32,000 nt of DNA from an uncultured Actinomycetota bacterium (GCA_963760105.1 CAVXBP010000014.1:56787-88786), one strand, 5' to 3'; shown: positions 10,377 to 27,170, numbered from the stretch's first letter. Numbers and translations are program-made. Notes: a model not told the origin generated them from the sequence alone.

Positions 10377-11935
10377 TCGCAACCGTCAGGGATCTGCTGG
10401 ACCGCCAGCTGGGGCGAGTCACGATGTACCGGCTGGTCACGATCGTGCTGTGCGTGCTGGCAGCGATCTACATCACCTACTCGGCCATTGGCGTGATCGA
10501 AGGGGTTTCCGCTGGCCATGAGGTCCTCTCGCTCGTGGTGCTTCTCGTCGCGTCGTATGCGTCCAACCGGCTGCTCGCTCTGCTCTGGAGGATCAAGCCG
10601 CACGGCGAGTCGTCGATCATCACCGGGCTCCTCCTGTTCTTCCTGTTCGTGCCGATGTTCACCACCGCGGTTGCGGACTACGCCTGGCTTGCCTCGGCGG
10701 CTGTGCTCGCCAACGCCTCGAAGTACGTGCTCGCGTGGCGTGGACGACACGTCTTCAACCCGGCCGCTGCCGGAGCGTTCCTCGTCTACGTCGCCCAGGA
10801 GATCGTGGGCCGCGAGTTCGCGACGTTCGCGATCTGGCAGGCAGCGGCAACCGACAAGATGTTGCCCTTCGTGGCGGTCGGAGCGTTCCTCGTCCTGTGG
10901 CGGACCCGCCGCCTCGATGTGGGCTTGCTGTTCATCGCCCTCACCGCGGTGCTGGTTGTCCTCGGCCTCAACGACCGCGGCACCGATCTCGGAGACGCCC
11001 TGCGGACCACGTTCTACTCCTACCCCGCGGTGTTCCTTGCGGGGTTCATGCTCAGCGAGCCGCTGACGCTGCCCCCACGCCGCAAGCAGCAGCTGGTCGT
11101 GGCCGCCGTCATGGCGCTGGTCTTCTCCTACCCGACCTGCATCTCGTTGCTGACCGACAGCCCTCCCGATCTGGGCTGGTTCGGCCCGACGCCCGAGAGC
11201 GCGCTCCTGGTCGGCAACCTCGTCGCCTTTGCCTTTGCCCGAAGGCGCGGGGTGTCACTTGACCTCGTCTCGCGCCGCCAGATCACCCCCGAGACGCACG
11301 AGTTCACGTTCCAATCCCGGCGTCCGGTCTCGTTCCGACCCGGGCAGTTCGCCGAGCTGACCCTGCCCCACAAGGGCGTCGACGGGCGCGGCGTGCGGCG
11401 GTCATTCAGCATCAGCTCGCCCCCCGATCCCGACGGCCAGGTGACGTTCGCACTGCGGATCCCCGAGAAGTCGTCAACCTTCAAGCGGGCGATGGTCGGT
11501 CTCGAGCCCGGAGCGCGAGTGCACTCAACCGGCATCTCCGGTGACTTCCTACTTCCCGACGATCCGGCGATCCCGGTGGTGCTGGTCGCCGGAGGCATTG
11601 GCATCACACCGTTCATCAGCCAGCTCCTCGACGAACCCGAGCGTGAAGCCGTCATCGTCTACGGCGTCACGGGACCAGACGACATTGCCTACGCGGATGT
11701 CTTGGCAGGGTTCAGGGTCGTGATCGTCTGCCCGGTTGAACCCGACAACCTGCCGACCCAGTGGCGCCACGTCGAGGCGCCGTTGGTGTCGGTCGACATC
11801 ATTGCCGCAGTCGTGCCCGACCTTGACCAGCGGCTCGCCTACATCTCGGGCCCGCCGGCCATGGTCAACGCTGCCCGCGCCGGACTCGTCAAACGGTGCA
11901 AGCGCGTCAGGACGGACTACTTCACGGGCTACTGA
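10373..11935 (+). CDS. RnfD/NqrB-like polytopic membrane domain fused to a C-terminal FNR-type (FAD/NAD(P)H) reductase domain
   Basis: The membrane half contains RHVFNPAAAGAFL, an RnfD/NqrB-like motif. The C-terminal half has RRSFSISS (RxYS-type FAD motif) and LVAGGIGITPF (NAD(P)H-binding). ATG 10373 overlaps the apbE stop. Confidence 0.7.
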   Translation: MIATVRDLLDRQLGRVTMYRLVTIVLCVLAAIYITYSAIGVIEGVSAGHEVLSLVVLLVASYASNRLLALLWRIKPHGESSIITGLLLFFLFVPMFTTAVADYAWLASAAVLANASKYVLAWRGRHVFNPAAAGAFLVYVAQEIVGREFATFAIWQAAATDKMLPFVAVGAFLVLWRTRRLDVGLLFIALTAVLVVLGLNDRGTDLGDALRTTFYSYPAVFLAGFMLSEPLTLPPRRKQQLVVAAVMALVFSYPTCISLLTDSPPDLGWFGPTPESALLVGNLVAFAFARRRGVSLDLVSRRQITPETHEFTFQSRRPVSFRPGQFAELTLPHKGVDGRGVRRSFSISSPPDPDGQVTFALRIPEKSSTFKRAMVGLEPGARVHSTGISGDFLLPDDPAIPVVLVAGGIGITPFISQLLDEPEREAVIVYGVTGPDDIAYADVLAGFRVVIVCPVEPDNLPTQWRHVEAPLVSVDIIAAVVPDLDQRLAYISGPPAMVNAARAGLVKRCKRVRTDYFTGY

Positions 11936-13015
11936 GTCGGCGAGACCAGCGCTCCTCGATCTTGCCGAACCGCCAGATCGCGCTGCTCACCGCCCACGTC
12001 AGCCACGAACAGCACCACGATCGCGTAGCCGACGCGATCAAGATCGATGCCTCCGATCCACGCAATGGGACCGGAAGTGAGGCCGAGCTTGTCGCTGAGC
12101 AGCCCCACCAGCTCGACGCCGCCGATGGCCAACGCCACGACGACCGACAGGCCCGTCACGGTGATGTTGTAATAGACCTTGCGGACGGGCCGGAGAAACG
12201 CCCAGTCGTACGCGAGGCCCATGAATGCGCCGTCGATGCTGTCGAACAGGCTCATGCCTGCGGTGAACAGGATCGGCAGCACCAACAGCGCATACCAAGG
12301 CATGTGGAACGCGGCCGCGCCAGCAGCAAGGACCAGAAGTGAGACCTCGGTTGCCGTGTCGAATCCGAGCCCGAACAGCAGTCCCACGCCATACATGTGC
12401 CGTGGTCTGCTGACTGATCTGGTGAACCGTCCGAGCAGTCGGTTGAGCAGGCCACGGTTTTGGAGCTGGCGTTCGAGCTCGGCCTCGTCATAGACACCTG
12501 CGCGCATGTTGCGCGCGACCCGCAGCACGCCGACGAGAACCACGGCGTTGATCAGACCGATCGTGATGAGGAACAGTCCGGAGACGCTGGTTCCGATCAC
12601 TCCGGCCGACTGCTGCAACGTCGAGGACTCGTCGGAGACCTGGCCACCCAGGGCGCGAACGCCGAACGACAGGAGCAGACACAGACCGAAGACAACGCTG
12701 GAGTGTCCCAACGCAAACCAGAAGCCGACCGACAAGGGGACGGCCGGCGTCGGGGTTGTCAGCCAAGAGCTTGCGGGTGACGTTGTCCACTGCTGCGATG
12801 TGGTCGATGTCGAATGCGTGGCGCATGCCCAGTGTGTAGGCGGTGACACCGAGCCCGATGCCGAACAGCCCGGTCTTGCCGAGCTCAAGCTGCTGTGCGG
12901 CGACCACGAACAGCAGACCCCAGCCGATCACGTGCAGCATGACGACCGCCACGGTCATGCCACCGAGGGACCGTCTCTCGGTGTGGGTCAGGCCGCGCAT
13001 CGCTGTCGTCGACAT
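11922..13015 (-). pseudogene. HoxN/HupN/NixA-family nickel/cobalt permease (NiCoT) interrupted by two +1 frameshifts
   Basis: The frame from ATG 13015 gives the signature HAFDIDHIAAVDNVTRKLL...GRPL. The conserved continuation SVGFWFALGHSSVV... is in another frame, with the shift at plus-strand GGGG 12736-12739. The C-terminus LTWAVSSAIWRFGKIEERW is in the third frame, with the shift near 12003-12004. The span is 1094 nt, which equals 364 codons plus 2 nt. Confidence 0.85.
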
Positions 13016-13053
13016 GGATTCTCCGGTGATCTGGATATCAGCCACCGTACTCA

Positions 13054-13071
13054 GATGCGACGATGTTGCAA
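13054..13071 (-). promoter_or_regulatory. Nur-box-like motif upstream of the NiCoT gene
   Basis: The minus strand reads TTGCAA-catcg-TCGCAT, compared with the remembered Streptomyces Nur consensus tTGCaa-N5-ttGCAA. The second half-site matches only 4 of 6. It lies 39-56 nt upstream of ATG 13015. Confidence 0.2.
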
Positions 13072-13088
13072 CAGGGCCGAATGATGAT

Positions 13089-13544: not shown

Positions 13545-13579
13545 GCGTCCATTGTGCGCTCTGGGGTGCCCGACATTCC

Positions 13580-13608
13580 TTGCGTGTGGGTGGGGCCCGA
13601 CCTATCGT
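13580..13608 (+). promoter_or_regulatory. Candidate hypA promoter
   Basis: TTGCGT (13580-13585), a 17-nt spacer, then TATCGT (13603-13608). GGAGG (13619-13623) lies 5 nt before ATG 13629. Confidence 0.25.
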
Positions 13609-13628
13609 GGCGTTGTCCGGAGGTGTGT

Positions 13629-13958
13629 ATGCACGAACTCTCCATCGCCGAGGCGGTCGTCGAGGCAGTTCTTGATCGCACCGGCGACCAGCAGGTGACT
13701 GTCGTCCGGCTCGACGTCGGAAAGCTCTCGGGGGTGGTGCCCGAGGCGTTGTCGTTCTGCTTTGAACTCGTCACCGCCGGCACGTCGCTTGAGGGCTCTG
13801 CTCTGGAGATCATCCACACCGCAGGTCTGGCGCACTGCCGCGGTTGCGACCGCGACTTTCACAAGGACGACCTGATCTTGCTGTGCGAGTGTGGAAGTGC
13901 CGATGTCGAGGTGGTGGCCGGACAGGAGTTGTCGGTCACCTCAGTGGAGGTGGCGTAG
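13629..13958 (+). CDS. hypA: Hydrogenase nickel-insertion metallochaperone HypA
   Basis: MHELSIAEAVV N-terminus (the MHE Ni site) and zinc motifs CRGC...CECG. Length is 109 aa. Confidence 0.9.
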   Translation: MHELSIAEAVVEAVLDRTGDQQVTVVRLDVGKLSGVVPEALSFCFELVTAGTSLEGSALEIIHTAGLAHCRGCDRDFHKDDLILLCECGSADVEVVAGQELSVTSVEVA

Positions 13959-14759
13959 ATGTGCGCAACATGTGGATGCGGCGAAGCCGAGGTGCGGGTC
14001 GACGGGGCGACGGGGGATTACCTTCACGTGCACGCGGACGGCACCGCGCACAGTCACGGCCCCGATCACGAGCATCCGCACGATCACGAGCACGAGCACG
14101 AGGTGCCCGCCCCCCATACGCACTCGATCGACCTTGAAGTTGCCGTGCTTGCCAAGAACGACCAATTGGCCGGTGACAACCGCACGTGGTTGCGGGAGCG
14201 CGGCATCGCGGCACTCAACCTCATGAGCTCTCCGGGCGCCGGCAAGACCTCGCTGCTGGAGCGGACAATCCGCGAAGCCGGACCTGACCGCCAGATCTGT
14301 GTCATCGAAGGTGACCAGGAAACGGCATATGACGCCGACCGCATCAGAGCCGCAGGTGCCCGAGCCGTCCAGATCAACACCGGCTCCGGGTGCCACCTCG
14401 ACGCCTCGATGGTGCGCCGCGGGCTCGACTCTCTGGGACCAGACGATGGCGATCTGGTCGTGTTGGAGAACGTCGGAAACCTCGTCTGTCCGGCCCTGTT
14501 CGATCTGGGCGAGACCAAGAAGGTCGTGGTCATCTCGGTGACCGAGGGGGACGACAAGCCGCTGAAGTACCCCCACATGTTCGCGGCCGCCGACCTGGTC
14601 GTCGTCAACAAGACCGACCTGCTGCCCTACGTCCAGTTCGACGTCGACCGGTGCGAGAAGGACGCCCGCAGCCTCAACCCGGACGTCACCTGGATGCCCT
14701 TGAGTGTCCAGACTGGCGAGGGTCTGGACGCCTGGTACGGCTGGCTGCGCGAACTTTAA
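13959..14759 (+). CDS. hypB: Hydrogenase nickel-incorporation GTPase HypB
   Basis: N-terminal CATCGC (CxxCGC), a His-rich tract, the P-loop SSPGAGKTS, and ENVGNLVCP and NKTDL motifs. Its ATG directly abuts the hypA stop. Confidence 0.95.
   Translation: MCATCGCGEAEVRVDGATGDYLHVHADGTAHSHGPDHEHPHDHEHEHEVPAPHTHSIDLEVAVLAKNDQLAGDNRTWLRERGIAALNLMSSPGAGKTSLLERTIREAGPDRQICVIEGDQETAYDADRIRAAGARAVQINTGSGCHLDASMVRRGLDSLGPDDGDLVVLENVGNLVCPALFDLGETKKVVVISVTEGDDKPLKYPHMFAAADLVVVNKTDLLPYVQFDVDRCEKDARSLNPDVTWMPLSVQTGEGLDAWYGWLREL
14025..14123 (+). other. His-rich nickel-storage tract within HypB
   Basis: 12 His in 33 residues (HVHADGTAHSHGPDHEHPHDHEHEHEVPAPHTH), encoded by reiterated CAC-GAn codons. Confidence 0.8.
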
Positions 14760-14802
14760 ACCTCATGGACGACCCCCGCAACCGGTGACGGTGCTTGTAC
14801 CA

Positions 14803-14819
14803 GAAATCGACAAGATTTC
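14803..14819. promoter_or_regulatory. Inverted repeat in an AT-rich patch upstream of the hydrogenase structural genes (operator candidate)
   Basis: GAAATC-gacaa-GATTTC, flanked by AGAAAT (14802-14807) and ATTTCT (14823-14828) and by a direct ATTTC-gca-ATTTC repeat. It lies just upstream of a TTGACA hexamer. Confidence 0.3.
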
Positions 14820-14840
14820 GCAATTTCTTCTGTGTGATCC

Positions 14841-14870
14841 TTGACACGCCGAGGGATCGAGGATGGTAAT
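14841..14870 (+). promoter_or_regulatory. Candidate promoter for hhyS/hhyL
   Basis: Perfect -35 TTGACA (14841-14846). An imperfect -10 (TGGTAAT, 14864-14870) follows at 17-18 nt. It sits in the 191-nt hypB-hhyS gap. Confidence 0.3.
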
Positions 14871-14915
14871 GGGATGGAGGTTGCGCAGCGCATCCATCCA
14901 GTGCACTGGCAGCCA

Positions 14916-14934
14916 GGAGGCATTCTTCGCCTCC
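14916..14934 (+). promoter_or_regulatory. 5'-UTR hairpin immediately upstream of the hhyS ribosome-binding site
   Basis: GGAGGC (14916-14921) pairs with GCCTCC (14929-14934) across a 7-nt loop. GGAGAG (14935-14940) follows, then ATG 14951. Confidence 0.3.
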
Positions 14935-14950
14935 GGAGAGGCCGGCCAAG

Positions 14951-16006
14951 ATGCCAACTGCCGAGGCGATCAAAGCGGAAGAAACCCTGATTCACGTCCT
15001 GTGGATCAACGCCGGATTGAGTTGCGACGGGGACTCGGTCTCCCTGACAGCCGCAACCCAGCCCAGTATCGAAGAGATTGCGATGGGCGCCCTCCCGGGC
15101 CTCCCGCAGATCGCGGTGCATTGGCCGCTGATCGACTTCGAGTGTGGCCCAGAGGGAGGTGCAGACGACTTTCTTGAGTGGTTCCACAAGGCAGATCGTG
15201 GCGAGTTGGAGCCGTTCGTCCTTGTCGTGGAGGGATCAATCCCCAACGAGGCACTCCACGACGAGGGCTATTGGTGTGGCTTCGGCAACGACCCCGCGAC
15301 CGGCCAGCCCCGTACGACGAGTGAGTGGCTTGATCGACTCACCCCCAAGGCGACGGCCGTTGTCGCAGTCGGCACCTGTGCGACATACGGCGGCATCCAC
15401 GCGATGGCCGGCAACCCCACCGGCGCGATGGGTGTTCCTGACTATCTCGGCTGGGACTGGAAGTCCAAGGCCGGCATCCCGATCGTCTGTGTTCCCGGTT
15501 GCCCGATTCAGCCCGACAACCTGTCCGAGACCCTGACCTACCTGCTTTACATGGCCACCGGCCAGGCGCCGATGATCCCCTTGGACGAGGCCCTGCGACC
15601 CACGTGGTTGTTCGGCTCGACCGTCCACGAAGGTTGTGACCGCGCGGGCTATTACGAGCAGGGTGACTTCGCGACCGAGTACGGCTCGCCCAAGTGCATC
15701 GTCAAGCTCGGCTGCTGGGGCCCGGTCGTCAAGTGCAATGTGCCCAAGCGTGGCTGGATGAACGGCATGGGTGGTTGTCCCAACGTGGGCGGCATCTGCA
15801 TCGGCTGCACGATGCCGGGCTTCCCCGACAAATTCATGCCGTTCATGGACGAGCCGCCGGGAGGCAAGTTGTCGACCGCTGCGGTCCAGCCGTATGGCAA
15901 GACGATGCGTTTCCTGCGATCCAAGACAACGGCAACGCTCAACAAGGAACCCAAGTGGCGCAAGCCCGGCAAGACGCTGACCACCGGCGCCAAGAAGACC
16001 TGGTAG
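14951..16006 (+). CDS. hhyS: [NiFe]-hydrogenase small subunit, group 1h/5 type (no Tat signal)
   Basis: FeS-ligand motifs SCDGDS, GTCATYGG, VPGCPIQP, HEGCDR, CIVKLGCWGPVVKC and CPNVGGICIGC. The N-terminus lacks an RRxF Tat motif. No in-frame start lies upstream of 14951 (stop at 14867). Confidence 0.9.
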   Translation: MPTAEAIKAEETLIHVLWINAGLSCDGDSVSLTAATQPSIEEIAMGALPGLPQIAVHWPLIDFECGPEGGADDFLEWFHKADRGELEPFVLVVEGSIPNEALHDEGYWCGFGNDPATGQPRTTSEWLDRLTPKATAVVAVGTCATYGGIHAMAGNPTGAMGVPDYLGWDWKSKAGIPIVCVPGCPIQPDNLSETLTYLLYMATGQAPMIPLDEALRPTWLFGSTVHEGCDRAGYYEQGDFATEYGSPKCIVKLGCWGPVVKCNVPKRGWMNGMGGCPNVGGICIGCTMPGFPDKFMPFMDEPPGGKLSTAAVQPYGKTMRFLRSKTTATLNKEPKWRKPGKTLTTGAKKTW

Positions 16007-16036
16007 TCCCACTCCCACAAGCAGAAAGGCGGCGTC

Positions 16037-17833
16037 ATGACGTCGACCATCCCAAGTCCCAGCAGCAGGAGCGTCAACAAAGATGGCCTGGTCGAGATGG
16101 CGTGGGACCCCATCACCCGCATCGTCGGCAGCCTCGGCATCTACACCAAGATCGACTTCGAGAACAAGACGGTCGTGGAGTGCCACAGCACGAGCTCGAT
16201 CTTCCGTGGCTACTCGATCTTCATGAAGGGCAAGGACCCTCGCGACGCGCACTTCATCACGAGCCGCATCTGTGGCATCTGCGGTGACAACCACGCCACC
16301 TGCTCCTGTTACGCGCAGAACATGGCCTACGGCGTCAAGCCGCCGAACATCGCGGAGTGGATCGTCAACCTCGGCGAGGCCGCCGAATACATGTTCGACC
16401 ACAACATCTTCCAGGAGAACCTGGTCGGCGTTGACTACTGCGAAAAGATGGTCTCCGAGACCAACCCCGAGGTGCTTGAGCTGGCCAACAACACGCCAGC
16501 ACCGCACGGCGGTGATCACGGTTACAAGACGATCGGCGACATCATGCGCTCGCTCAACCCGTTCACGGGGGAGTTCTATCGCGAGGCGCTCGTGGTCAGC
16601 CGCTACACGCGCGAGATGTTCTGCCTGATGGAGGGCCGCCACGTTCACCCGTCGACCCTCTACCCGGGCGGAGTGGGCACGGTCGCGACGATCCAGCTGA
16701 TGACCGACTACATCACGAGGCTCATGCGCTACGTGGAGTTCATGAAGAAGGTCGTTCCGATGCACGACGACCTGTTCGACTTCTTCTACGAGGCGCTCCC
16801 GGGCTACGAGCAGGTGGGCAACCGCCGCATCCTCCTTGCGTGCTGGGGCTCCTTCCAGGATCCCGATCACTGCAACTTCGACTACAAGGACATGACCAAC
16901 TGGGGTCGCAAGATGTATGTCACGCCGGGCGTCGTGGTCGATGGCAAGCTCGTCACGACCGACCTGGTGGAGATCAACCTCGGCATCCGCATCCTGCTTG
17001 GATCGTCCTACTACGACGACTGGGAGGACCAGGAGACATTCGTCAAGAACGACCCGCTGGGCAACCCGGTCGACCGTCGCCACCCGTGGAACCAGCACAC
17101 CAACCCCAAGCCGCAGAAGCGCGACCTCGATGGGGGCAAGTACTCCTGGGTCATGTCGCCGCGCTGGTTCGACGGCAAGGACTACCTCGCGCTCGACACC
17201 GGTGGTGGACCGTTGGCGCGCCTGTGGTCCACCGCCCTCGCCGAGCTGGTGGACATCGGCTACGTGCAGTCCACCGGGCACAGCGTCAAGATCAACCTGC
17301 CCAAGACCTCGCTCAAGCCCCCGATGGAGCTGGAGTGGAAGGTCCCACGGTGGAGCAACACGATCGAGCGCAACCGCGCCCGCACCTACTTCCAGGCCTA
17401 CGCGGCGGCGTGTGCCCTGCACTTCGCGGAGAAGGCACTCGAGGAGATTCGGGCCGGTCGCACCAAGACTTGGGAAAAGTTCGAGGTGCCGGACGAGGGC
17501 ATTGGCTGTGGCTTCACGGAGGCAGTTCGCGGCGTTCTGAGCCACCACCTGGTCATCCGGGACGGCAAGATCGCCAACTACCACCCCTATCCGCCGACTC
17601 CGTGGAACGCCAACCCGCGCGACTCCTACGGCACCCCCGGTCCGTACGAGGACGCGGTCCAAGGCCAGCCGATCTTCGAGAAGAACGACCGCGAGCACTT
17701 CAAGGGCATCGACATCATGCGTACGGTGCGCAGTTTCGACCCGTGTCTGCCCTGCGGTGTGCACATGTACCTCGGAGAAGGACAGACCCTCGAGAGACTG
17801 CACTCGCCGACGCAGTCTGCCGGCACCGAATAG
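16037..17833 (+). CDS. hhyL: [NiFe]-hydrogenase large subunit, group 1h/5 (high-affinity, actinobacterial type)
   Basis: L1 TSRICGICGDNH and L2 SFDPCLPCGVH match the published group 5 signatures exactly. Length is 598 aa. A 22-aa extension follows the terminal His, which is the protease substrate. Confidence 0.95.
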   Translation: MTSTIPSPSSRSVNKDGLVEMAWDPITRIVGSLGIYTKIDFENKTVVECHSTSSIFRGYSIFMKGKDPRDAHFITSRICGICGDNHATCSCYAQNMAYGVKPPNIAEWIVNLGEAAEYMFDHNIFQENLVGVDYCEKMVSETNPEVLELANNTPAPHGGDHGYKTIGDIMRSLNPFTGEFYREALVVSRYTREMFCLMEGRHVHPSTLYPGGVGTVATIQLMTDYITRLMRYVEFMKKVVPMHDDLFDFFYEALPGYEQVGNRRILLACWGSFQDPDHCNFDYKDMTNWGRKMYVTPGVVVDGKLVTTDLVEINLGIRILLGSSYYDDWEDQETFVKNDPLGNPVDRRHPWNQHTNPKPQKRDLDGGKYSWVMSPRWFDGKDYLALDTGGGPLARLWSTALAELVDIGYVQSTGHSVKINLPKTSLKPPMELEWKVPRWSNTIERNRARTYFQAYAAACALHFAEKALEEIRAGRTKTWEKFEVPDEGIGCGFTEAVRGVLSHHLVIRDGKIANYHPYPPTPWNANPRDSYGTPGPYEDAVQGQPIFEKNDREHFKGIDIMRTVRSFDPCLPCGVHMYLGEGQTLERLHSPTQSAGTE

Positions 17834-17840
17834 GTTCGCG

Positions 17841-18764
17841 ATGACGCAGCACGAGCTGCTTGATCACGGACCGGACCTGAGCCAGACCGGCGAGCGCATC
17901 GACGCCCTTCTCACCGCCAGCGCGACCGGCGGGACCGTCGCCCGCGAACGAGCCGAAGAGCTCGTTCGGCTCGTCACCGATCTCTACGGGGCGGGGCTCG
18001 AGCGCATGATGGAGATCTTGTACGAGACCGGCCGCCTCGGTGACGACCTTTTGGCAGCCTTGGCCGGCGATGAGCTCGTCTCGGGCCTGATGCTGGTTCA
18101 CGGGCTTCACCCCTACAGCGTGATCCAACGCGTCGAGGATGCCCTCGAAGAGGTTCGCCCCTACCTCGGGACGCACGGCGGAGATGTCGAGCTGCTCGAC
18201 GTGACCGACGAGGGCGTTGTGCACCTGCGTCTGCTCGGCAGCTGTGACGGGTGTCCCTCGTCATCGGTCACGCTGAGTCTCGCCGTCGAAGGCGCCATCA
18301 TGGCTGCGGCACCCGAGGTGATCTCGATCGACGTCGAGGAGGCCACCGCATCAACGCAGGAGTCGAACGGCGTGATCTCGGTCGACTCGTTGATGTCGCG
18401 GCTCAAGGTCGACACCCCCACGGGCGCCGACTGGCATGTCCTGCCTGAGCTCTCCGCCGGCGAGGTGTCGTCGGTCGCCGTTGGCGGTCTGCAGCTGCTG
18501 GTGTGCCGCATCGCGTCTGACCTGTTCGCGTTCGTCGACCGTTGCGCCAGGTGTGAAGCAAGTCTCGCGGACGGATCGCTCGCGCGGCGCCTCGGCGGTG
18601 GCATCGGCGATGCGCTGCTCAAGTGTCCGTCGTGTCAGGTGCACTACGACGTACGCAAGGCAGGGTCGTGCGTCGACATCCCTGAGCTGCACCTCAAGCC
18701 CTTGCCCGTGCTTGCCGATGGCGGCATCATCTCGGTGGCAGTTCCGGCGACTGAGGTGGCATGA
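17841..18764 (+). CDS. Hydrogenase-associated FeS protein: NifU-like domain plus Rieske-fold-like 4-Cys C-terminal domain (HhyE-like)
   Basis: NifU C-terminal-type segment VRPYLGTHGGDVELLDV...LLGSCDGCPSS. The C-terminal domain has CARC-x23-CPSC where a Rieske protein has CxH...CxxH. It starts 7 nt after the hhyL stop. Confidence 0.7.
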   Translation: MTQHELLDHGPDLSQTGERIDALLTASATGGTVARERAEELVRLVTDLYGAGLERMMEILYETGRLGDDLLAALAGDELVSGLMLVHGLHPYSVIQRVEDALEEVRPYLGTHGGDVELLDVTDEGVVHLRLLGSCDGCPSSSVTLSLAVEGAIMAAAPEVISIDVEEATASTQESNGVISVDSLMSRLKVDTPTGADWHVLPELSAGEVSSVAVGGLQLLVCRIASDLFAFVDRCARCEASLADGSLARRLGGGIGDALLKCPSCQVHYDVRKAGSCVDIPELHLKPLPVLADGGIISVAVPATEVA

Positions 18765-19417
18765 GCACGCCGGGCCGCGGGCAGTCTCCGCTGGCGAGTT
18801 TGCGGCGCATCTCCACGACCAGACCAGCACCGACGGCCGACGAACGGTGCGAGATGTGCGCCAAGTCGATCGGCCACGACCATCAGCACGTCGTGGGGCT
18901 CGAGAGCCGAACCCTGATGTGCACCTGCAGGCCGTGCTACCTGTTGTTCACCGAGCAGGACGCCAACATCCGCTACAAGGCGGTGCCCGATCGCTACCTG
19001 AGCTTCCCCGACTTCGCGTTCGATCAGGGTGCGTGGGACGACCTGCAGATTCCGGTCGGGTTGGCCTTCATCTTCCGCAACTCGGTCGAGGATCGCGTGG
19101 TGGCGTTCTATCCGAGTCCGGCCGGCGCAACGGAGTCTGAGCTGTCGTTGGAGGCCTGGGACCGGATGGTCTCGACCAACCCGCAGTTTGATCTTTTGCT
19201 CTCGGACGTCGAGGCGCTGCTGATCTATCGCGGCGATCACGGCCGAGGCGACTTTCATTGCGCTCTCGTCCCGATCGACATCTGCTACGAGCTCGTCGGC
19301 ACGATGCGGATGACATGGCGTGGCTTCGACGGTGGGTCGGAGGCCCACGCCGCGATGGATGAGTTCTTCGCGACGGTCGAGGGCCGCAGCAAGCTGGCGC
19401 CGGCGGTGTCGGTATGA
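18761..19417 (+). CDS. Conserved hydrogenase-cluster protein of unknown function with an N-terminal Cys/His metal motif (DUF5947-like from memory)
   Basis: 218 aa with CEMC...GHDHQH...CTCRPC. ATGA overlaps at both ends. Confidence 0.6.
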   Translation: MSTPGRGQSPLASLRRISTTRPAPTADERCEMCAKSIGHDHQHVVGLESRTLMCTCRPCYLLFTEQDANIRYKAVPDRYLSFPDFAFDQGAWDDLQIPVGLAFIFRNSVEDRVVAFYPSPAGATESELSLEAWDRMVSTNPQFDLLLSDVEALLIYRGDHGRGDFHCALVPIDICYELVGTMRMTWRGFDGGSEAHAAMDEFFATVEGRSKLAPAVSV

Positions 19418-20055
19418 GTCGCTACGAGTTCAGCATCCTCGACGTGTTTGCGGAGCCGTACGCCGCGACGCCGCAGCTGACTGCGCGCCTGCGCATCCAG
19501 GAGGACACCGGCACGATCGTGCATGCCATTGCGCTGCGCTGCCAGGTGCGCATCGATCCGCAGCGACGCGGCTACGACGACGATGAGGCCACCGATCTGC
19601 GGGCCCTGTTCGGTTCGCGTGAACGGTGGTCGGACACCCTGCGTCCGTTCCTGTGGATGCAGTGCAGCACCACGGTCCAGGGATTCTCCGGCGTCACCGA
19701 GGTCGACCTGCCGATGCCGTCAACCTACGACTTCGATGTCGTCGGGTCCCGCTACATGCACGCCGTTGGCGAAGGTGCCGTGCCGCTGTCGTTCATGTTC
19801 TCGGGTGTCGTGTTCACCAAGGGAACCAACGGTTTCGCGGTCGAGCAGGTGCCGTGGGACTGCGACACGAGTTACCAGATGCCGGTGGCTGTCTGGCGAC
19901 AGATGATCGAGATGTACTACCCGGGCACCGGCTGGATGCGTCTTGATCACGACGTGATGTCGGCTGTGAGCGCCTATCGGACCGACCATGGTCTGACTTC
20001 CTGGGAAGAGACGCTCAACCACCTGCTCGAGGCGCGCAGGGAGGTCCCATCATGA
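19414..20055 (+). CDS. Conserved hydrogenase-cluster protein of unknown function (DUF6084-like from memory)
   Basis: 213 aa with coding-like composition. ATGA overlaps at both ends. Confidence 0.55.
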   Translation: MSRYEFSILDVFAEPYAATPQLTARLRIQEDTGTIVHAIALRCQVRIDPQRRGYDDDEATDLRALFGSRERWSDTLRPFLWMQCSTTVQGFSGVTEVDLPMPSTYDFDVVGSRYMHAVGEGAVPLSFMFSGVVFTKGTNGFAVEQVPWDCDTSYQMPVAVWRQMIEMYYPGTGWMRLDHDVMSAVSAYRTDHGLTSWEETLNHLLEARREVPS

Positions 20056-21476
20056 AGCTCGACCTGGCCCGATCAGTCGCCGATGCGGTGCTCTACGAGG
20101 GCTACCTCCTCTACCCCTACCGAGCGAGCTCGAGCAAGAACCAGTCGCGCTGGCAGTTCGGCGTCGTCAGCCCGGCGGACGCGGAGGCCCGCGGGCTGGG
20201 CGAGGCGTCGTCGATGTCGATGCAGTGCCTCGTCGCGGGTGAGCTCGACGCCGACGCATCATTCGTGCTGCACGTGCGTTTCCTTCAGCTGCAACGTCGT
20301 CAGGCGCTCAACACAGCCGGACAACCTGTCGCGGAGATCGTCCTGGGTGACACGACCTGGATGAGCTGGGACGAAGCCGTTGACCAAGAAGTTTCGTTCA
20401 CGATCGCGGCATCTGAGCTTGCCAACGGGGTGAGCCTGCAGGTCGAGGTGGCTGCGGGCGAAGACCTCGAACCACTGGTGGATGGGTCGGGCGTGACCGC
20501 CGGTACGATCGCGCGCCGCCGCCAGCCCATCTCGGCCGAAGTCCGCGTCGGCATGGAGCCGGTCGACGGGTTGCAGCGCCTCAGCCTCGAGCTCGAGAAC
20601 GTCAAGGCGGGCCCGACGATCGACAAGAACGATGCGATCGCACACTCACTGATCGGCACCCACGTCATCATCGAGGCCCACGGACCGACATTCGTCTCGC
20701 TCCTGGAGCCGCCCGACGACGTGAGCGCCGCTGTCGCGGCCGGCTGCGAGCAACGCAGATGCTGGCCAGTCCTCGGCGGAGCGCCCGGCGACACCGACCT
20801 CCTACTCGGCCTGCCGATCATCTTGTACGACTATCCCGAGATCGCCGAGCAGAGCACAGGTGCGTTGTTCGACTCGACCGAGATCGACGAGATCCTGACC
20901 CTGCGCGTGATGACCATGACCGACGAGGAGAAGGCGGAAGCCCGGGCCACCGACCCACGAGCTCGCGAGATCATCGATCGCTGCGACGAGATGTCGCCCG
21001 AGTCGATGCAGGCCATGCACGGCATCCTGCGCGATCCCGGTGCGCTCGACGGCGCAGCGCCGTCGCCGATTGCTGAGCCCGACTGGCCCGTGCTCAGCGA
21101 CATACGCGACCTCGATCCGCCCAGCTTCGAGACCGGGGACTCTCCGTGGTGGGACCCCGAGCAGGATGCCGCCGTCGCCCCCGAGACCGATGCTGTCGTC
21201 ATCGACGGAGTCACCGTCGCCAAGGACAGCCTGGTGCGGGTGCACCCCAACCGGCGCGCCGATGCGCACGACATGTTCTTCGACGGTCAGATTGCCAAGG
21301 TCACTGCTGTGCTGAGCGATGTGGACGGGGGCACGCACCTGGCCGTCGTGCTGGTCGACGACCCGGCCGCCGACATGCACGAGTGGTACGGCCGCTACCT
21401 CTACTTCGCGCCGGACGAGCTCGAGCCCATGCCGATCGACTACGCCCACAACGCAAGAGAGGAGATTCGCCCATGA
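20052..21476 (+). CDS. Conserved hydrogenase-cluster protein of unknown function, 474 aa, acidic
   Basis: Long ORF, ATGA-coupled at both ends. N-terminus LYEGYLLYPYRASSSKNQSRWQFGVV. No catalytic motif was recognised. Confidence 0.6.
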   Translation: MKLDLARSVADAVLYEGYLLYPYRASSSKNQSRWQFGVVSPADAEARGLGEASSMSMQCLVAGELDADASFVLHVRFLQLQRRQALNTAGQPVAEIVLGDTTWMSWDEAVDQEVSFTIAASELANGVSLQVEVAAGEDLEPLVDGSGVTAGTIARRRQPISAEVRVGMEPVDGLQRLSLELENVKAGPTIDKNDAIAHSLIGTHVIIEAHGPTFVSLLEPPDDVSAAVAAGCEQRRCWPVLGGAPGDTDLLLGLPIILYDYPEIAEQSTGALFDSTEIDEILTLRVMTMTDEEKAEARATDPRAREIIDRCDEMSPESMQAMHGILRDPGALDGAAPSPIAEPDWPVLSDIRDLDPPSFETGDSPWWDPEQDAAVAPETDAVVIDGVTVAKDSLVRVHPNRRADAHDMFFDGQIAKVTAVLSDVDGGTHLAVVLVDDPAADMHEWYGRYLYFAPDELEPMPIDYAHNAREEIRP

Positions 21477-21592
21477 GAACAGTTGGCCTCATCACCACAG
21501 GCGTCGGAGTCGTGATCCTCGCGGCCGCCGTGATCGTCCTGCTGATGTCACTTTCCGACATCTCTCGTTACCTCAAGATCCGCAAGATGTGA
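21473..21592 (+). CDS. 39-aa single-pass membrane peptide
   Basis: MRTVGLITTGVGVVILAAAVIVLLMSLSDISRYLKIRKM. ATG 21473 overlaps the upstream stop (ATGA). AGAGAGGAG lies 7-15 nt upstream. One hydrophobic helix is followed by a basic tail. Confidence 0.55.
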   Translation: MRTVGLITTGVGVVILAAAVIVLLMSLSDISRYLKIRKM

Positions 21593-21622
21593 CTTCTCCC
21601 AACAGATGAAGGTGGATGAACC

Positions 21623-22120
21623 CTGAGCATCTCGATCCTGGTTGCCGGTATCGGCAACATCTTCCTCAGCGACGACGGCTTCGGCTCCGAAGTCGCCCGG
21701 CTGCTGCTCGCGGACGCCTCGGACCTGCCCGACGGCGTCGAGGTGGTCGACTACGGCATCCGGGGCATGCACCTCGCATACGACCTGCTCGACGGTTGTG
21801 AGGCACTCGTCATCGTTGACGTGCTTCCTGGAGACGGGGCGCCGGGTGATGTCGTCGTGATGAGCGTCGGCCCCGATGACATCGGAACCGGCGAGCTCGA
21901 CGCTCATGGCATGGATCCCCTCGCGGTGCTCGGCAGTCTGCAGGCACTCGGCGGCACCCTCCCTCCCACCTATGTCGTCGGGTGCCAGCCTGCCAACCTC
22001 GACGAGGGCATGGGCCTCAGCACCGAGGTGGCCGCGGCGGTGCCGGTTGCCATCGACGCCGTCCTGCGCGTCATCCGCGAGCGCATTCACACCCCAACCA
22101 CCCAGATGAGTGAGGCCTGA
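21623..22120 (+). CDS. hupD: [NiFe]-hydrogenase maturation endopeptidase (HupD/HybD/HyaD family); start unresolved
   Basis: ILVAGIGNIFLSDDGFGSEV...VDYGIRGMHLAYDLL...DAHGMDP. The conserved N-terminus lies upstream of the first ATG/GTG in frame (21743). Candidates are CTG 21623, 6 nt after GAAGGTGGA, or ATG 21616 if one C of CCC 21621-21623 is spurious. Confidence 0.8.
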   Translation: MSISILVAGIGNIFLSDDGFGSEVARLLLADASDLPDGVEVVDYGIRGMHLAYDLLDGCEALVIVDVLPGDGAPGDVVVMSVGPDDIGTGELDAHGMDPLAVLGSLQALGGTLPPTYVVGCQPANLDEGMGLSTEVAAAVPVAIDAVLRVIRERIHTPTTQMSEA

Positions 22121-22122
22121 TC

Positions 22123-22386
22123 ATGTGTCTTGGCATACCGGGACAAATTGTCGAAATCGTGGAGGGCTTCGCCGATCAACTTGCCCTCGTCGACGTCGAG
22201 GGCGCGAAACGCAAGATCAACATCGGCATGCTCGAGGAGAAGCCGGTGGCCGGCGACTGGATCCTGATCCACATGGGGTTCGCATTGGAGCTGATCGACG
22301 AGACGAAGGCCGAAGAGGCCATCACAGGGCTGGAGATGATGGGACAAGCGCGCGAGGACGCGGAGCCGGAGGTGCGCCGTGGCTGA
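22123..22386 (+). CDS. hypC: Hydrogenase assembly chaperone HypC/HupF
   Basis: MCLGIPGQIVEI N-terminus with the essential Cys2, and GDWILIHMGFA. Length is 87 aa. Confidence 0.9.
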   Translation: MCLGIPGQIVEIVEGFADQLALVDVEGAKRKINIGMLEEKPVAGDWILIHMGFALELIDETKAEEAITGLEMMGQAREDAEPEVRRG

Positions 22387-23206
22387 CACGATGATCCGCC
22401 CTCCCCGCGTGCCCGTGTCAGGCCCCGTGCTGTTCGCGCGTTATGCCTTTCCGCCCAACTCGCACGGTTACTGCGGCCCCGCAGATCACGGGTCCTTCTT
22501 TGAACAGAGCGCCGTGGGTGCGGCAGCCGGCACGGTGAGCAGCGACGTCGACACGGGATTGAGGCACCTGTCCCAGCAGTTCGAAGGTGCCTGGCCATAC
22601 CTTCAACTCATCGCGGCGGAGCTCGGAATCGATGATCCGCTGGACCGCCGTGTCGTCGACGCCTACTGGGTCGGCAATTCGCGTCTCAACCAGGTCTCGA
22701 CCCGCGCCATCGGCGACTCGATGGAAGAACGGTTCCGTTTCCGCGCCGGGCCCGGATTCGATGCCCTCACAGACAGTGTGGTCGCCGGCGGGGTGCCGCA
22801 CCACAGTTTCGTCGTGTTCTGCATCTACCCGTGGACCGGACTGCTCAGCGACGGTCGAAAGGCTGAGCAGGCGCTGACTGTGCTTGACCAGTGCCGCATC
22901 CGCTGGGGCAAGGTGATCGCCGTCCAAGGTGACCAGGTGGTCGTCGAGTCGACCCCCCTCGTGTGGGACGGACACCTCCTCGCACTGGGTGACCGGATCA
23001 CCGAAACCGTCACCCGCGCCGTCGATGGCACCAGCCTGATAGGTGACGTCATGCCCGGTGACTGGGTCTCCCTGCACTGGGAGTGGGTCTGCGACGTGTT
23101 GAGCCAGCGTCAGGTCCGTTACCTCCGCGACTTCACGGTGCGTCACCTGCGCATCGTCAATGAAGGCAATTTGCACAAAGGACCGAGCGCCCTCCTGGGC
23201 ACCTGA
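22379..23206 (+). CDS. Unknown hydrogenase-cluster protein with a HypC-like C-terminal domain (DUF6390-like from memory)
   Basis: 275 aa with N-terminal FPPNSHGYCGP. Residues ~172-240 (CRIRWGKVIAV...GDWVSLHWEW) parallel HypC's CLGIPGQIVEI...GDWILIHMGF. The start is GTG 22379 (8-nt overlap with hypC) or ATG 22391. Confidence 0.6.
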   Translation: MADTMIRPPRVPVSGPVLFARYAFPPNSHGYCGPADHGSFFEQSAVGAAAGTVSSDVDTGLRHLSQQFEGAWPYLQLIAAELGIDDPLDRRVVDAYWVGNSRLNQVSTRAIGDSMEERFRFRAGPGFDALTDSVVAGGVPHHSFVVFCIYPWTGLLSDGRKAEQALTVLDQCRIRWGKVIAVQGDQVVVESTPLVWDGHLLALGDRITETVTRAVDGTSLIGDVMPGDWVSLHWEWVCDVLSQRQVRYLRDFTVRHLRIVNEGNLHKGPSALLGT

Positions 23207-23220
23207 CGAAAGGAAAAGCG

Positions 23221-24333
23221 ATGACCCCCCAGCCGGAGGCACTGCCCCGCAGAACCCTATTGAAGGGGGCTGTCGCACTGGGCGGCGTCGCCTTCCTGTC
23301 CGCGTGTGGTTCGTCGTCGTCGGACGCGGGCTCCGAAGCGATTGCCGTTACGGACCAACGAGGCAAGAAGTTGACACTCGACGGACCGGTCAAGCGCATC
23401 GTGACGCTGCCGATGCCTGCCGCGTCCATAATGATCGCGGTCGATCGCAGCGCAAAGCATCTCGCCGGAGTGCACGATGCCTCCTACGCCGCGGCCGAGC
23501 AGAGCATTCTGGGCACGATGTTCCCGGAGGTGCTCAAGGTTCGCCACGATGTCGGCTCACAGGACTTCGCCCCCAACGTCGAGGGCATCCTGTCGCTCAA
23601 ACCCGATCTCGTGGTCCAGTGGGCGAGTCAGGGCGACGAAATCATCCAGCCTCTCGAGAACGCCGGGTTGACTGTCCTGGGAGTCAACTACGGCAAGCTG
23701 GAGGATGTCGGAGACTGGTTCAAGATGTTCTCCGCCGCGCTCGGCAAGCCATCGCGGGGCACGGAGATGGCTGGCCGGCTGGCGTCCGACCAGGCAGTCA
23801 TCAAGACTGCCGCGGTCAAGAGGGGAGCGCGTGCGCCGCGCACCCTCTACTTCAACCGGTTCGCCGAGAGCCTGACCGTGGCGGGCGGCGGGACCTTCAA
23901 CGATGCGTACATCCAACTGATCGGTGCCGAGAACGTCGCAACTGGGGTGAAAGGGCTGATGCCGGTTGACCTTGAAAAGGTCCTGGACTGGGATCCGGAG
24001 ATCATCGTGCTGGGCAACTTCGACAAGTCCATGCCGGCCGATGTCTACGGTGACCGCCGTTGGCGCGATGTCGCGGCAGTCAAGGAGCGGAGGGTCTACC
24101 GAGCGCCGCTGGGCGGTTACCGCTGGGACCCTCCCAGCCATGAGTCACCGTTGATGTGGACCTGGCTCTCGCAGGTCGCGTTCCCGGACGGCACGGACGG
24201 CGGACTGCGCGACAAGATTGTCGACGACTACAAGTACTTCTACGACCACAGCCCAACGCAGACCGAGATTGACACCATGCTGTGGACGGAGGAGAACGGT
24301 GCCTCCGCCGACTACGACCAGTTCTCGGCCTGA
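23221..24333 (+). CDS. ABC importer substrate-binding lipoprotein, FecB/BtuF/CeuE class (metal-chelate type), Tat-like signal
   Basis: PRRTLLKGAVALGGVAFLSAC (twin-Arg motif plus lipobox). Peripla_BP_2-like body (RIVTLP..., KPDLVVQW, DPEIIVLGN). It starts 14 nt after the previous stop with a GAAAGGAAAAG RBS. Confidence 0.8.
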   Translation: MTPQPEALPRRTLLKGAVALGGVAFLSACGSSSSDAGSEAIAVTDQRGKKLTLDGPVKRIVTLPMPAASIMIAVDRSAKHLAGVHDASYAAAEQSILGTMFPEVLKVRHDVGSQDFAPNVEGILSLKPDLVVQWASQGDEIIQPLENAGLTVLGVNYGKLEDVGDWFKMFSAALGKPSRGTEMAGRLASDQAVIKTAAVKRGARAPRTLYFNRFAESLTVAGGGTFNDAYIQLIGAENVATGVKGLMPVDLEKVLDWDPEIIVLGNFDKSMPADVYGDRRWRDVAAVKERRVYRAPLGGYRWDPPSHESPLMWTWLSQVAFPDGTDGGLRDKIVDDYKYFYDHSPTQTEIDTMLWTEENGASADYDQFSA

Positions 24334-24382
24334 GGACGTAGCGCCGAGGTCAGCCCCCGTCACAGGTCGAGTAGGAGGGCCG

Positions 24383-25378
24383 TTGGCCGTCGTCGTTGCC
24401 GGGATCGTCCTGCTGGCGGCAATTGTGGTGGCTGTCTCGCTCGGTCGCTACACCGTGTCGGTTCCGCATGTGCTGCAGATCCTGGCATCAGGGGTTCTCC
24501 CCGACGGCGGGGTCACCGACACGGAGCGGACTGTTGTTGAGCTCGTACGCCTTCCCCGCGTCATGCTCGCCGTGCTGGTGGGTGGTGGCCTGGGCGTCGC
24601 CGGGGCGGCCCTGCAGGCGACCTTCCGCAACCCGTTGGTCAGCCCCGACATCATCGGGGTCTCCTCGGGCGCATCCCTCGGCGGCGCATTGGCGCTGTTG
24701 TTTGGCCTCGGCACGGCGTTTCTCGTCGCCGGCGCGTTCGTGTTCGGACTCATCGCACTTGGCCTCCTGTTCGCGCTCACGGCCGGCCGGGCCTCGTCGA
24801 TGCTCATGGTGGTGCTCGGTGGTGTCGTACTCGGTTCGTTCTTCTCCGCACTGGTCGGGCTGGTGCAATATTTCGCCGACCCTTATTCGTCGCTGCCCGC
24901 GATCGTGTTCTGGTTGCTCGGCAGCCTCGCCACAGCCACCTGGGCGAAGGTCTTCGTGGCCGCGGTGCCGATCCTGCTCGGCACGACGGTTGTCCTGCTG
25001 CTTCGCTGGCGCCTCAACGTGCTTTCGCTAGGGGACGAGGAGGCGTCATCGCTCGGGATTCGCCCCAACCGGCTGCGCTGGGTGTTCCTGCTGTCCTGCG
25101 CACTCATCGTCGCCGGAGCGGTCGCGGTGAGCGGTGCCGTCGGTTGGGTGGGTCTGGTGATCCCGCACCTGGCTCGTATGTGGGTCGGACCTGATCACCG
25201 GGTCCTCCTACCGGTCAGCTTCCTGCTCGGAGCCACCTTCCTTATCCTGATCGACACGATCGCCCGGACGGCAACGGCCGGCGAGATTCCGCTCGGTGTG
25301 CTGACGGCGCTGCTCGGTGCGCCGGTGTTCTTCGTGCTGTTGCGGCGCAACCGGGACAGGATTTGGGACCATGCTTGA
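24383..25378 (+). CDS. FecCD/BtuC-family ABC permease
   Basis: LPRVMLAVLVGGGLGVAGAALQATFRNPLVSPDIIGVSSGASLG and IPLGVLTALLGAPVFFVLLRR. TTG 24383 is the first start after the SBP stop and follows AGGAGG (24373-24378). The 24218 start in the ORF track would overlap the SBP gene by 116 nt. Confidence 0.8.
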   Translation: MAVVVAGIVLLAAIVVAVSLGRYTVSVPHVLQILASGVLPDGGVTDTERTVVELVRLPRVMLAVLVGGGLGVAGAALQATFRNPLVSPDIIGVSSGASLGGALALLFGLGTAFLVAGAFVFGLIALGLLFALTAGRASSMLMVVLGGVVLGSFFSALVGLVQYFADPYSSLPAIVFWLLGSLATATWAKVFVAAVPILLGTTVVLLLRWRLNVLSLGDEEASSLGIRPNRLRWVFLLSCALIVAGAVAVSGAVGWVGLVIPHLARMWVGPDHRVLLPVSFLLGATFLILIDTIARTATAGEIPLGVLTALLGAPVFFVLLRRNRDRIWDHA

Positions 25379-26141
25379 GTTGGACGCGGTGGGGTTCAGA
25401 TATCCCGGGTCCGACTGGGTCTTCCGCAACGTCAGCCTGACTGTCGCGGAGGGGGCCGTCACGGCTGTGCTCGGTCCCAACGGCCGCGGCAAGACGACTC
25501 TCATACGATGCGCGGCAGGCTTGGCGAAACCGCAGGAGGGTCAGGTCAAGAACGACGGATCCGTCGGGTTCGTCCCCCAGACACGAGCCGGTGCATTCGC
25601 CTATCGGGCCATCGACATGGTCGTGATGGGCAGGGTGCGGCAGGTGAGCCTGTTCGGCTCGCCGACTCGCGGTGATCACGTTGCCGCGATGGATGCGATG
25701 GAACGCATCGGCATCGGTCACCTTGCCGATCGACAGTTCCCGACGTTGAGCGGAGGCGAGCAGCAGCTCGTCCTGATCGCACGGGCGATCGCCTCGGAGT
25801 CCCCGCTGCTCATTCTGGACGAACCGACGACGGGACTTGACCTGCACAACCAGGCACAGATCCTGTCGTTGCTGCGCAAACTCGTCGCAGACGGCATGGG
25901 TGTGCTTCTCACGACCCATCACCCTGACCACGCGCTTTATCTCGCTGACGTTGTCGTGCTGATGGGTGGCGGAGGCGACGTCCGAGCGGGCCCCGCGGCA
26001 ACGATGCTTTCCGATGTCGAGCTGAGTCGCCTCTACGGCATCGACGTGCAAACGATCACGTACGGCCACCGCGGCGACTCGCGGCGCGCCATCATCACGA
26101 GGTATGACGACGTGCTGGGGTCAGGTTTCATCGACACCTGA
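25371..26141 (+). CDS. ABC transporter ATPase (FecE/BtuD-like)
   Basis: Walker A GPNGRGKTT, signature LSGGEQQ, Walker B LLILDEPT and the TTHH H-loop. It overlaps the permease stop by 8 nt. Confidence 0.9.
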   Translation: MLELDAVGFRYPGSDWVFRNVSLTVAEGAVTAVLGPNGRGKTTLIRCAAGLAKPQEGQVKNDGSVGFVPQTRAGAFAYRAIDMVVMGRVRQVSLFGSPTRGDHVAAMDAMERIGIGHLADRQFPTLSGGEQQLVLIARAIASESPLLILDEPTTGLDLHNQAQILSLLRKLVADGMGVLLTTHHPDHALYLADVVVLMGGGGDVRAGPAATMLSDVELSRLYGIDVQTITYGHRGDSRRAIITRYDDVLGSGFIDT

Positions 26142-26176
26142 CGGAGCCCTCGATACCGGTGTGGTGGGATGAACTA

Positions 26177-27119: not shown

Positions 27120-27137
27120 ATCACACCTCGCGGATTA

Positions 27138-27157: not shown

Positions 27158-27170
27158 ATAAACTCAAGGT

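Follow-up and report, generated by a model that had tools for sequence, protein, structure and literature searches.

Predicted group 1h [NiFe]-hydrogenase operon of an Aeromicrobium-like actinobacterium in a genome that lacks hypD, hypE and hypF

The iron-cyanide-carbonyl half of [NiFe]-hydrogenases is taught to be built universally by the proteins HypC, HypD, HypE and HypF. Here we describe a hydrogenase locus on a 32,000-nucleotide (nt) stretch of DNA (hereafter, the window) from an uncultured Actinomycetota bacterium (GCA_963760105.1, CAVXBP010000014.1:56787-88786), in whose genome hypD, hypE and hypF, the genes for the Fe(CN)2CO unit, are absent throughout. The locus encodes a predicted group 1h hydrogenase, and its hypC gene is followed by a gene for a protein of the family DUF6390 (type A) and by the genes of an importer. 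This arrangement, in which hypC, DUF6390-A and a transporter accompany a 1h or 3b hydrogenase in a genome devoid of HypD, HypE and HypF (HypDEF), is a recurrent architecture. The host assembly (G000; 2.74 Mb in 19 contigs, 96% complete) comes from an Aeromicrobium-like actinobacterium whose genus is probably Aeromicrobium, as judged from its best named relative, an Aeromicrobium metagenome-assembled genome (MAG). All coordinates refer to the whole window, which has a G+C content of ~65%, and genes were called using third-position G+C, Pfam and NCBIfam.

The absence of the three maturation genes was established by several types of searches of the host assembly. The HypD family PF01924 has no match anywhere in it. 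The best HypE and HypF matches fall far short of the curated thresholds, reaching 49 bits where TIGR02124 requires 252 and 24 bits where TIGR00143 requires 466; hydrogenase-free control genomes also contain HypE- and HypF-like paralogues of comparable strength. No match was returned by tblastn when the assembly was searched with HypD, HypE and HypF from Kribbella. Lineage-specific hidden Markov models constructed from 35-56 actinobacterial HypD, HypE and HypF sequences were also run on its six-frame translation, where HypD gave no match at E values up to 10 and only weak matches were obtained for HypE (32.5 bits) and the C-terminal half of HypF (24.7 bits). A radical S-adenosylmethionine source of the CO and cyanide ligands (HydG) was considered and rejected, as HydG was not found in the genome. 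The original prediction, made from the window sequence, had called the locus complete. This description has to be withdrawn, as HypD, HypE and HypF are missing from both the window and the entire assembly; the members of the canonical Hyp set that are present are HypA, HypB, HypC and the specific endopeptidase. RefSeq labels the 1h small subunit on plasmid pHG1 of Cupriavidus necator (L131, NC_005241.1 59962-61017) as ‘hydrogenase expression protein HypE’. The same label is attached to several plasmid hits and could mask real absences of HypE in annotation-based surveys.

A second copy of the locus (L103) is located on another contig of the same assembly (C11, 51.8 kb, G+C 63.1%), where positions 315-14811 match positions 11914-26122 of the window. 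This copy spans the nickel permease to the importer ATPase and has the same hypC-DUF6390-importer order. The two copies are 80-82% identical at the DNA level and their HhyL large subunits are 98% identical at the protein level, whereas the C11 copy differs in having an intact nickel permease gene (NicO) and an extra acidic open reading frame (ORF) of ~65 residues ahead of the protease. The C11 copy may be part of the same cell's genome, sit on a plasmid or come from a relative that was binned together with it; contamination by a relative resembling genome G008 is not supported, as the loci of the window, C11 and G008 are approximately equidistant (~82% nucleotide identity). The locus also occurs, with the same order and without HypD, in three further genomes of the same genus. 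HypD, HypE and HypF were not found in two of these, G023 (a single contig) and G014 (six contigs), nor in Arthrobacter sp. A5 (a complete chromosome), Modestobacter marinus and Arthrobacter sp. ISL-48. In an Aeromicrobium MAG (L020) and a Blastococcus MAG (L067), HypD was likewise not found, HypE and HypF not having been searched for there.

The window hydrogenase is well supported as a member of group 1h (Hhy/AH-type) by its scores against solved structures, its signature motifs and its gene order, although this sequence class by itself leaves the Km unfixed and the label ‘high-affinity’, which the original prediction had used, cannot be read from it. The 1h enzyme of C. necator, whose solved structure is 5AA5, reportedly has a micromolar Km. 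HhyL scores 1096 bits against chain C of this structure and the small subunit, HhyS, scores 547 bits against chain A, as compared to at most 170 and 140 bits, respectively, against all other solved hydrogenases, including the group 2a enzyme Huc. HhyL ends in a 22-residue C-terminal extension past the ...CGVH sequence, for processing by the protease, and it has both a canopy arginine (within EAVRGVLSHH) and the threonine of a PTPWN motif, residues that contact the diatomic ligands in standard enzymes. The assignment to group 1h/5 had been proposed on the basis of two sequences in HhyL, TSRICGICGDNH (L1) and SFDPCLPCGVH (L2), both of which are found verbatim in its translation and correspond to published signatures of this group (PMC5364354). 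Other details of the prediction also stand: the N-terminus of HhyS, MPTAEAIKAEETLIHVLWINAGLSCDGDS, has no RR motif and hence no twin-arginine translocation (Tat) signal, and its SCDGDS proximal-cluster motif aligns with GCDGDS in chain A of 5AA5, so that by analogy with this solved relative the aspartate may be a cluster ligand. The accessory genes past hhyL, which encode a NifU-domain (HhyE-like) protein, DUF5947, DUF6084 and a protein of ~475 residues, are collinear with those of the AH locus on pHG1 and of 80 related loci. Pfam and NCBIfam bear out the predicted placement of the genes, with hypA, hypB, the protease gene and hypC on one strand, as well as the estimate that about seven genes have no known function; these encode the HhyE-like protein (whose function is partly known), DUF5947, DUF6084, a 474-residue protein, DUF6893, DUF6390 and a 241-residue ORF.

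We surveyed 400 Actinomycetes genomes with a completeness of at least 95%. Of these, 138 encode the large subunit of a [NiFe]-hydrogenase; HypD is present in 118 of these hydrogenase carriers and absent from 20. The sample includes 89 genomes with a 1h HhyL protein, nine of which have no HypD. Two types of DUF6390 can be distinguished. Type A, which is 47-67% identical to the window protein, is encoded in 14 genomes, none of which has HypD, whereas type B, which is 39-45% identical to it, is encoded in 17 genomes, 16 of which have HypD. Fourteen of the 20 HypD-less carriers thus contain type A, and one more, the closed single-contig genome G064, the sole seeming departure from this split, contains a divergent copy with the same 3b/EamA layout that is seen in other HypD-less genomes. 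Of the five HypD-less genomes without DUF6390, one is a fragmented assembly and the other four match the hydrogenase models only at the borderline.

The type A protein is not restricted to loci for 1h enzymes, as six type A genomes have no such enzyme. In the four that were examined in detail, DUF6390-A is located downstream of a group 3b-like hydrogenase with four subunits (a Fer4_22 protein, a NAD-binding/DHODB protein, the small subunit and a 428-residue large subunit), and the order after the subunits is hypC, an EamA transporter and DUF6390-A, with a protease gene seen in one case. The remaining two were confirmed to have EamA paired with DUF6390-A. Those 3b-locus genomes that were tested for HypE and HypF lack both. 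The 3b-type HypD-less loci contain no homologues of DUF5947, DUF6084 or the 474-residue protein, leaving HypC, DUF6390-A and a transporter as the sole non-structural elements, protease apart, that they have in common with the 1h loci. The 3b-like loci with EamA and DUF6390-A are L109-L112, L121, L122 and L129.

A transporter adjoins DUF6390-A in 14 of 15 sample genomes, and it belongs to one of three kinds: a Fe(III)-type ATP-binding cassette (ABC) system in seven, frequently wedged between hypC and DUF6390, an EamA protein in six, and a FecCD-type ABC system, as in the window, in one. None of the seven type B controls has a transporter beside DUF6390, whose neighbours are instead hypE or hypD, a UvrA-like protein, a Usp protein or an IS481 transposase. 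One MAG (L027/L132; ena:ERZ25039549 contig_15807, 268201-288482) combines features of both arrangements. Here, hypF-hypC-hypD-hypE precede a further hypC gene and DUF6390-A; no transporter is present, and the next genes encode an ECF sigma factor and a protein that weakly matches FG-GAP. The set is flanked by a 1h hydrogenase on one side and by a 3b hydrogenase, in convergent orientation, on the other. This locus may represent an intermediate state that precedes the loss of HypDEF, and in these data the loss of HypDEF accompanies the presence of a transporter.

The ratio of nonsynonymous to synonymous substitution rates (dN/dS) was calculated for species pairs in which both members are HypDEF-less, covering five HypDEF-less lineages with dS values of 0.3-2.4. 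HhyS and HhyL have ratios of 0.02-0.13, and the hypA, hypB, hypC, HhyE, protease, DUF and importer genes have ratios of 0.03-0.44. All genes of the locus are therefore under purifying selection, so that the enzyme probably functions and undergoes maturation in the absence of HypDEF. Moreover, no column in the alignments of HhyL, HhyS or HypC separates the HypDEF-less from the HypDEF-containing lineages, which argues that the active site is the same, ordinary one. In a tree built from concatenated HhyS, HhyL, DUF5947, DUF6084 and 474-residue protein sequences of 82 loci, the HypDEF-less loci are polyphyletic, appearing in at least four places; a single origin is rejected, as forcing their monophyly costs 309 log-likelihood units (approximately unbiased test, p = 9e-57). 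The 20 DUF6390 copies of HypDEF-less genomes, whether linked to 1h or to 3b enzymes, all group in a single clade of the DUF6390 tree (support 98/91). The discordance between the trees indicates that DUF6390-A either moved between hydrogenase loci or was differentially retained, independent of the structural genes.

The window DUF6390 protein matches PF19927 with 303.8 bits, the match covering positions 4-239 of the 244-position profile. Five residues are invariant in an alignment of 24 sequences, Cys32 (in GYCGP), His142 (HHSF), Cys172 (CRIRWG), and His233 and Cys238 (LHWxWxCD), while His141 of the HHSF motif is nearly so. An AlphaFold (AF2) model, with a predicted local distance difference test (pLDDT) score of 89.5, contains a helical domain (residues 15-172) followed by a C-terminal OB fold and a terminal helix, and the OB fold bears a GDWVxLH motif similar to that of HypC. 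Comparison of the two families with hhalign gives a probability of 40.6% over 26 columns around this motif; however, Cys172 is internal rather than N-terminal as in HypC, and PF01455 does not match the protein. The profile comparison lends weak support to the notion that the C-terminal part may be an internalised HypC-like domain. A fold search against the PDB gave no match for the protein as a whole and nothing with an E value below 0.06: the OB domain retrieved generic OB folds only (ribosomal S17 and exosome subunits, E >=0.07), which were set aside, and the helical N-terminal domain had no match. Remote homology to HypD, HypE or HypF was also considered for DUF5947, DUF6084, the 474-residue protein, DUF6390 and HhyE, and was rejected with hhalign probabilities that are all below 1%.

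With moderate confidence, we favour the explanation that the window contains a functional, selected 1h operon whose Fe(CN)2CO unit is supplied without HypDEF, with HypC and DUF6390-A as its likely scaffold and the importer as its likely source of supply. The hydrogenase would oxidise H2 aerobically and pass electrons via HhyE into the respiratory chain, as does the Hhy enzyme of Mycobacterium smegmatis, and it would carry an ordinary NiFe(CN)2CO site. An ordinary cofactor in a genome without HypDEF implies that the iron unit comes from a HypDEF-independent route. Most likely, HypC and DUF6390-A would form an iron scaffold that replaces the HypC-HypD pair, and the adjacent importer would take up iron or a precursor of the ligands; such a route does not by itself account for where cyanide and CO come from. 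The wider proposal, that a sizeable minority of aerobic Actinobacteria, about one-tenth of the sampled hydrogenase carriers, mature 1h and 3b enzymes without HypDEF by means of HypC-DUF6390 and a dedicated importer, is more tentative, and we would give it just short of an even chance.

Several observations weigh against these proposals. H2 oxidation by Aeromicrobium isolates has not been demonstrated (PMC12428524); Aeromicrobium phylotypes are described in the literature as responding to H2 in soil. The window's own nickel permease gene is frameshifted. Type A genome G330 has no adjacent importer, and the MAG that retains hypF-hypC-hypD-hypE beside DUF6390-A reveals that type A and HypDEF are not strictly exclusive. 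Type B proteins reside in ordinary hypFCDE operons, so membership of the DUF6390 family alone does not make a HypD substitute, and neither DUF6390 nor the transporters display any sign of cyanide-making chemistry. By hhalign, no locus protein is related to HypD, HypE or HypF. Finally, the genomes in the sample are related, so that counts such as 0 of 14 type A genomes with HypD overstate independence.

The rival that survives best, which we nevertheless regard as unlikely, also holds the enzyme to be functional and HypDEF-independent, but assigns the replacement enzymes to unrecognised genes elsewhere in the genome, with DUF6390-A and the transporters only supplying or buffering iron or nickel. 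It would account for the facts that importers of the FecCD and Fe(III) types are well-established iron systems, that the conserved Cys and His residues of DUF6390 are typical of a metal site, and that the module shows no chemistry for cyanide synthesis. It accounts less readily for DUF6390-A, HypC and a transporter being all that the 1h and 3b HypDEF-less loci share outside their structural and protease genes, for the recruitment of three unrelated transporter families to one position, and for the HypFCDE-retaining MAG, in which DUF6390-A is present and a transporter is not. We consider it very unlikely that the operon is a decaying relic, non-functional since the loss of hypDEF and turning into pseudogenes, even though HypDEF are held to be necessary for every [NiFe]-hydrogenase (PMC12134894), the window nickel permease has two frameshifts and the locus is patchy within the genus (3 of 24 relatives). 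The dN/dS ratio is far below 1 for every gene between HypDEF-less species while dS is near saturation, HhyL is 85-98% identical across families, the architecture is retained in at least seven families, and the frameshifts are limited to a NicO gene whose C11 counterpart is intact. Scarcely credible is an ordinary, complete 1h system whose hypDEF genes escaped notice in the 4% of the genome that is not assembled, or reside on a plasmid that was not binned: the bin is in 19 contigs and its second locus copy begins at the very start of C11, but in both copies hypC leads directly to DUF6390 and the importer, and HypD, HypE and HypF are likewise missing from G023, G014, the Arthrobacter sp. A5 chromosome and single-contig G064.

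The features of the locus and its surroundings are listed in Table 1. Every gene in the string from hypA to DUF6390 (13629-23206) is on the plus strand, with a spacing of 191 nt between hypB and hhyS.

Table 1. Genes in and around the hydrogenase locus, in window coordinates
Feature	Position	Strand	Basis
NicO/HoxN-type nickel permease	11929..13075	-	PF03824 in two different frames; divergent from hypA
hypA, nickel metallochaperone	13629..13958	+	PF01155 98.7 bits; TIGR00100 79 bits
hypB, nickel-inserting GTPase	13959..14759	+	PF02492 89 bits
hhyS, predicted group 1h small subunit	14951..16006	+	PF01058, PF14720; 5AA5 chain A 547 bits
hhyL, predicted group 1h large subunit	16037..17833	+	5AA5 chain C 1096 bits; L1/L2 motifs
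HhyE-like NifU-domain protein	17841..18764	+	PF01106 81 bits
DUF5947 protein	18761..19417	+	PF19372 242 bits
DUF6084 protein	19414..20055	+	PF19562 309 bits
474-residue conserved protein	20052..21476	+	No Pfam or NCBIfam match
39-residue single-pass membrane peptide, DUF6893	21473..21592	+	PF21833 44 bits
Hydrogenase maturation endopeptidase	~21623..22120	+	TIGR00072 118 bits
hypC	22123..22386	+	PF01455 79.6 bits; N-terminal Cys (MCLGIPG), GDWILIH motif
DUF6390 type A	22379..23206	+	PF19927 ~304 bits
FecB/BtuF-class ABC importer binding protein	23221..24333	+	PF01497 66 bits; weak NCBIfam IsdE, BtuF, FecB
FecCD-type permease	24218..25378	+	PF01032 288 bits from residue 65; true start probably later than 24218
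ABC importer ATPase	25317..26141	+	PF00005 92 bits
241-residue ORF, no known function	26394..27119	+	Pfam
Type II NADH dehydrogenase (NDH-2)-like flavoprotein	27171..28667	+	Pfam

The two frameshifts in the window NicO gene are located near 12734-12738 and 12002-12004, as revealed by comparison with the intact C11 copy, to which it aligns in three frames; they represent either homopolymer assembly errors or the true decay of one of two copies. Further along the locus, the HhyE-like protein contains a CxxC motif in its NifU domain and two more toward its C-terminus. The 474-residue protein is encoded in all but one of 82 compared loci and contains many invariant residues, for example in the N-terminal LYEGYLLYPYR sequence and in a TEIDEILTLR segment. 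Its AF2 model (pLDDT 75) consists of a beta-sandwich core, a helical region and a small C-terminal beta domain. A resemblance to DrmA (E value 4e-7) proved uninformative, as it has a TM score of 0.23 and a root-mean-square deviation of 23 Å and involves only part of DrmA, and so did the similarity of the C-terminal domain to PetP or BAH domains in a fold search. Directly 3' of this gene, a homologue of the DUF6893 peptide, likewise exactly 39 residues long, is found in 77 of 81 1h loci and ends in ...PD(I/V)xRYxxxRxM; the peptide is the sole membrane element among the hydrogenase genes.

The protease gene has an unusual start. Full coverage of TIGR00072 requires translation to begin near 21623-21638, whereas there is no in-frame ATG, GTG or TTG before 21743, which corresponds to residue 42 of the conserved domain. 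The probable start is a CTG codon at 21623 behind the sequence AAGGTGGA, and the C11 copy retains the context of this codon. With standard ORF callers, the GIGNxxxxDDGxG motif of the protease would be truncated. Downstream, the importer binding-protein gene begins 14 nt past DUF6390, and the presence of PF01497, PF01032 and PF00005 in consecutive genes identifies a type II (FecCD/BtuCD-class) ABC importer. The 241-residue ORF and the NDH-2-like gene adjoin the locus in Aeromicrobium-type genomes only, and the latter lies 3' of the importer in the window, L020, G014 and G023, and not in G008 or other families; its product could be a quinone-linked partner of the hydrogenase or a mere neighbour. 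Just upstream of NicO, positions 9071-11935 (+) encode an FMN-binding protein, an ApbE flavin transferase and a 531-residue FNR-type FAD/NAD-domain protein, genes that are not conserved beside the locus in the compared genomes of the same genus. A promoter and terminator scan of 11800-28800 produced nothing that exceeds the shuffled expectation.

Biological removal of H2 from the atmosphere is mainly the work of group 1h enzymes, and surveys use counts of hhyL as a proxy for this activity. If the HypDEF-less carriers are active, there would be a second way to make or acquire the organometallic unit that works in air, and the heterologous production of O2-insensitive hydrogenases could be simplified; if they are inactive, gene-based estimates of H2 oxidisers would be about one-tenth too high among Actinomycetes. 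HypDEF-less maturation, if true, would amount to either an undescribed biosynthesis of Fe(CN)2CO or the salvage of an imported precursor. A literature search found no paper that describes [NiFe]-hydrogenase maturation without HypDEF, that ties hhyL to the absence of hypD, or that deals with DUF6390 or DUF5947. Whether HypDEF-less carriers are active or inactive could be decided with the cultured strains Arthrobacter sp. A5, Arthrobacter bambusae DS999 and Modestobacter marinus CPCC 205245.

Compared with the canonical HypABCDEF pathway of Escherichia coli and C. necator, the window keeps HypA, HypB, HypC (with its N-terminal Cys and His motif) and the endopeptidase, whereas HypD, the scaffold, and HypE and HypF, which produce cyanide from carbamoyl phosphate, are missing from its genome. 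A 2025 review of cofactor biosynthesis describes the six Hyp proteins as indispensable without mentioning any exception (PMC12134894). The Hhy system of M. smegmatis (Hyd2, MSMEG_2718-2722), the 1h enzyme whose physiology has been studied, is closely related, as mycobacterial HhyL orthologues are 85-87% identical to that of the window and hhyL is directly followed in both by an HhyE-type NifU gene with a CxxC motif and then by the same accessory genes. HhyE is needed for Hhy activity in M. smegmatis, and its description fits the window NifU protein (PMC6883350). However, most of the mycobacterial loci that were retrieved have homologues of hypD, hypE and hypF within 10 kb of hhyL, unlike the window, and they contain either a type B DUF6390 or none, with no adjacent importer. 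The AH locus on plasmid pHG1 of C. necator H16 (HofK/HofG) differs in a similar manner: its protease gene is followed by hypF-hypC-SIS-hypD-hypE-hypA-hypB, with neither DUF6390 nor an importer, whereas in the window hypA and hypB are located upstream and hypC leads into DUF6390 type A and the FecCD-type importer, hypDEF being absent genome-wide. The window also has the 39-residue DUF6893 gene, for which no counterpart is annotated in pHG1. Nevertheless, the structural genes of the two loci are 74% identical at the nucleotide level, both small subunits lack a Tat leader and have an Asp-containing proximal-cluster motif, and both loci present, in the same order, a divergent HoxN/NicO gene, the small and large subunits, NifU, DUF5947, DUF6084, the protein of ~475 residues and the protease.

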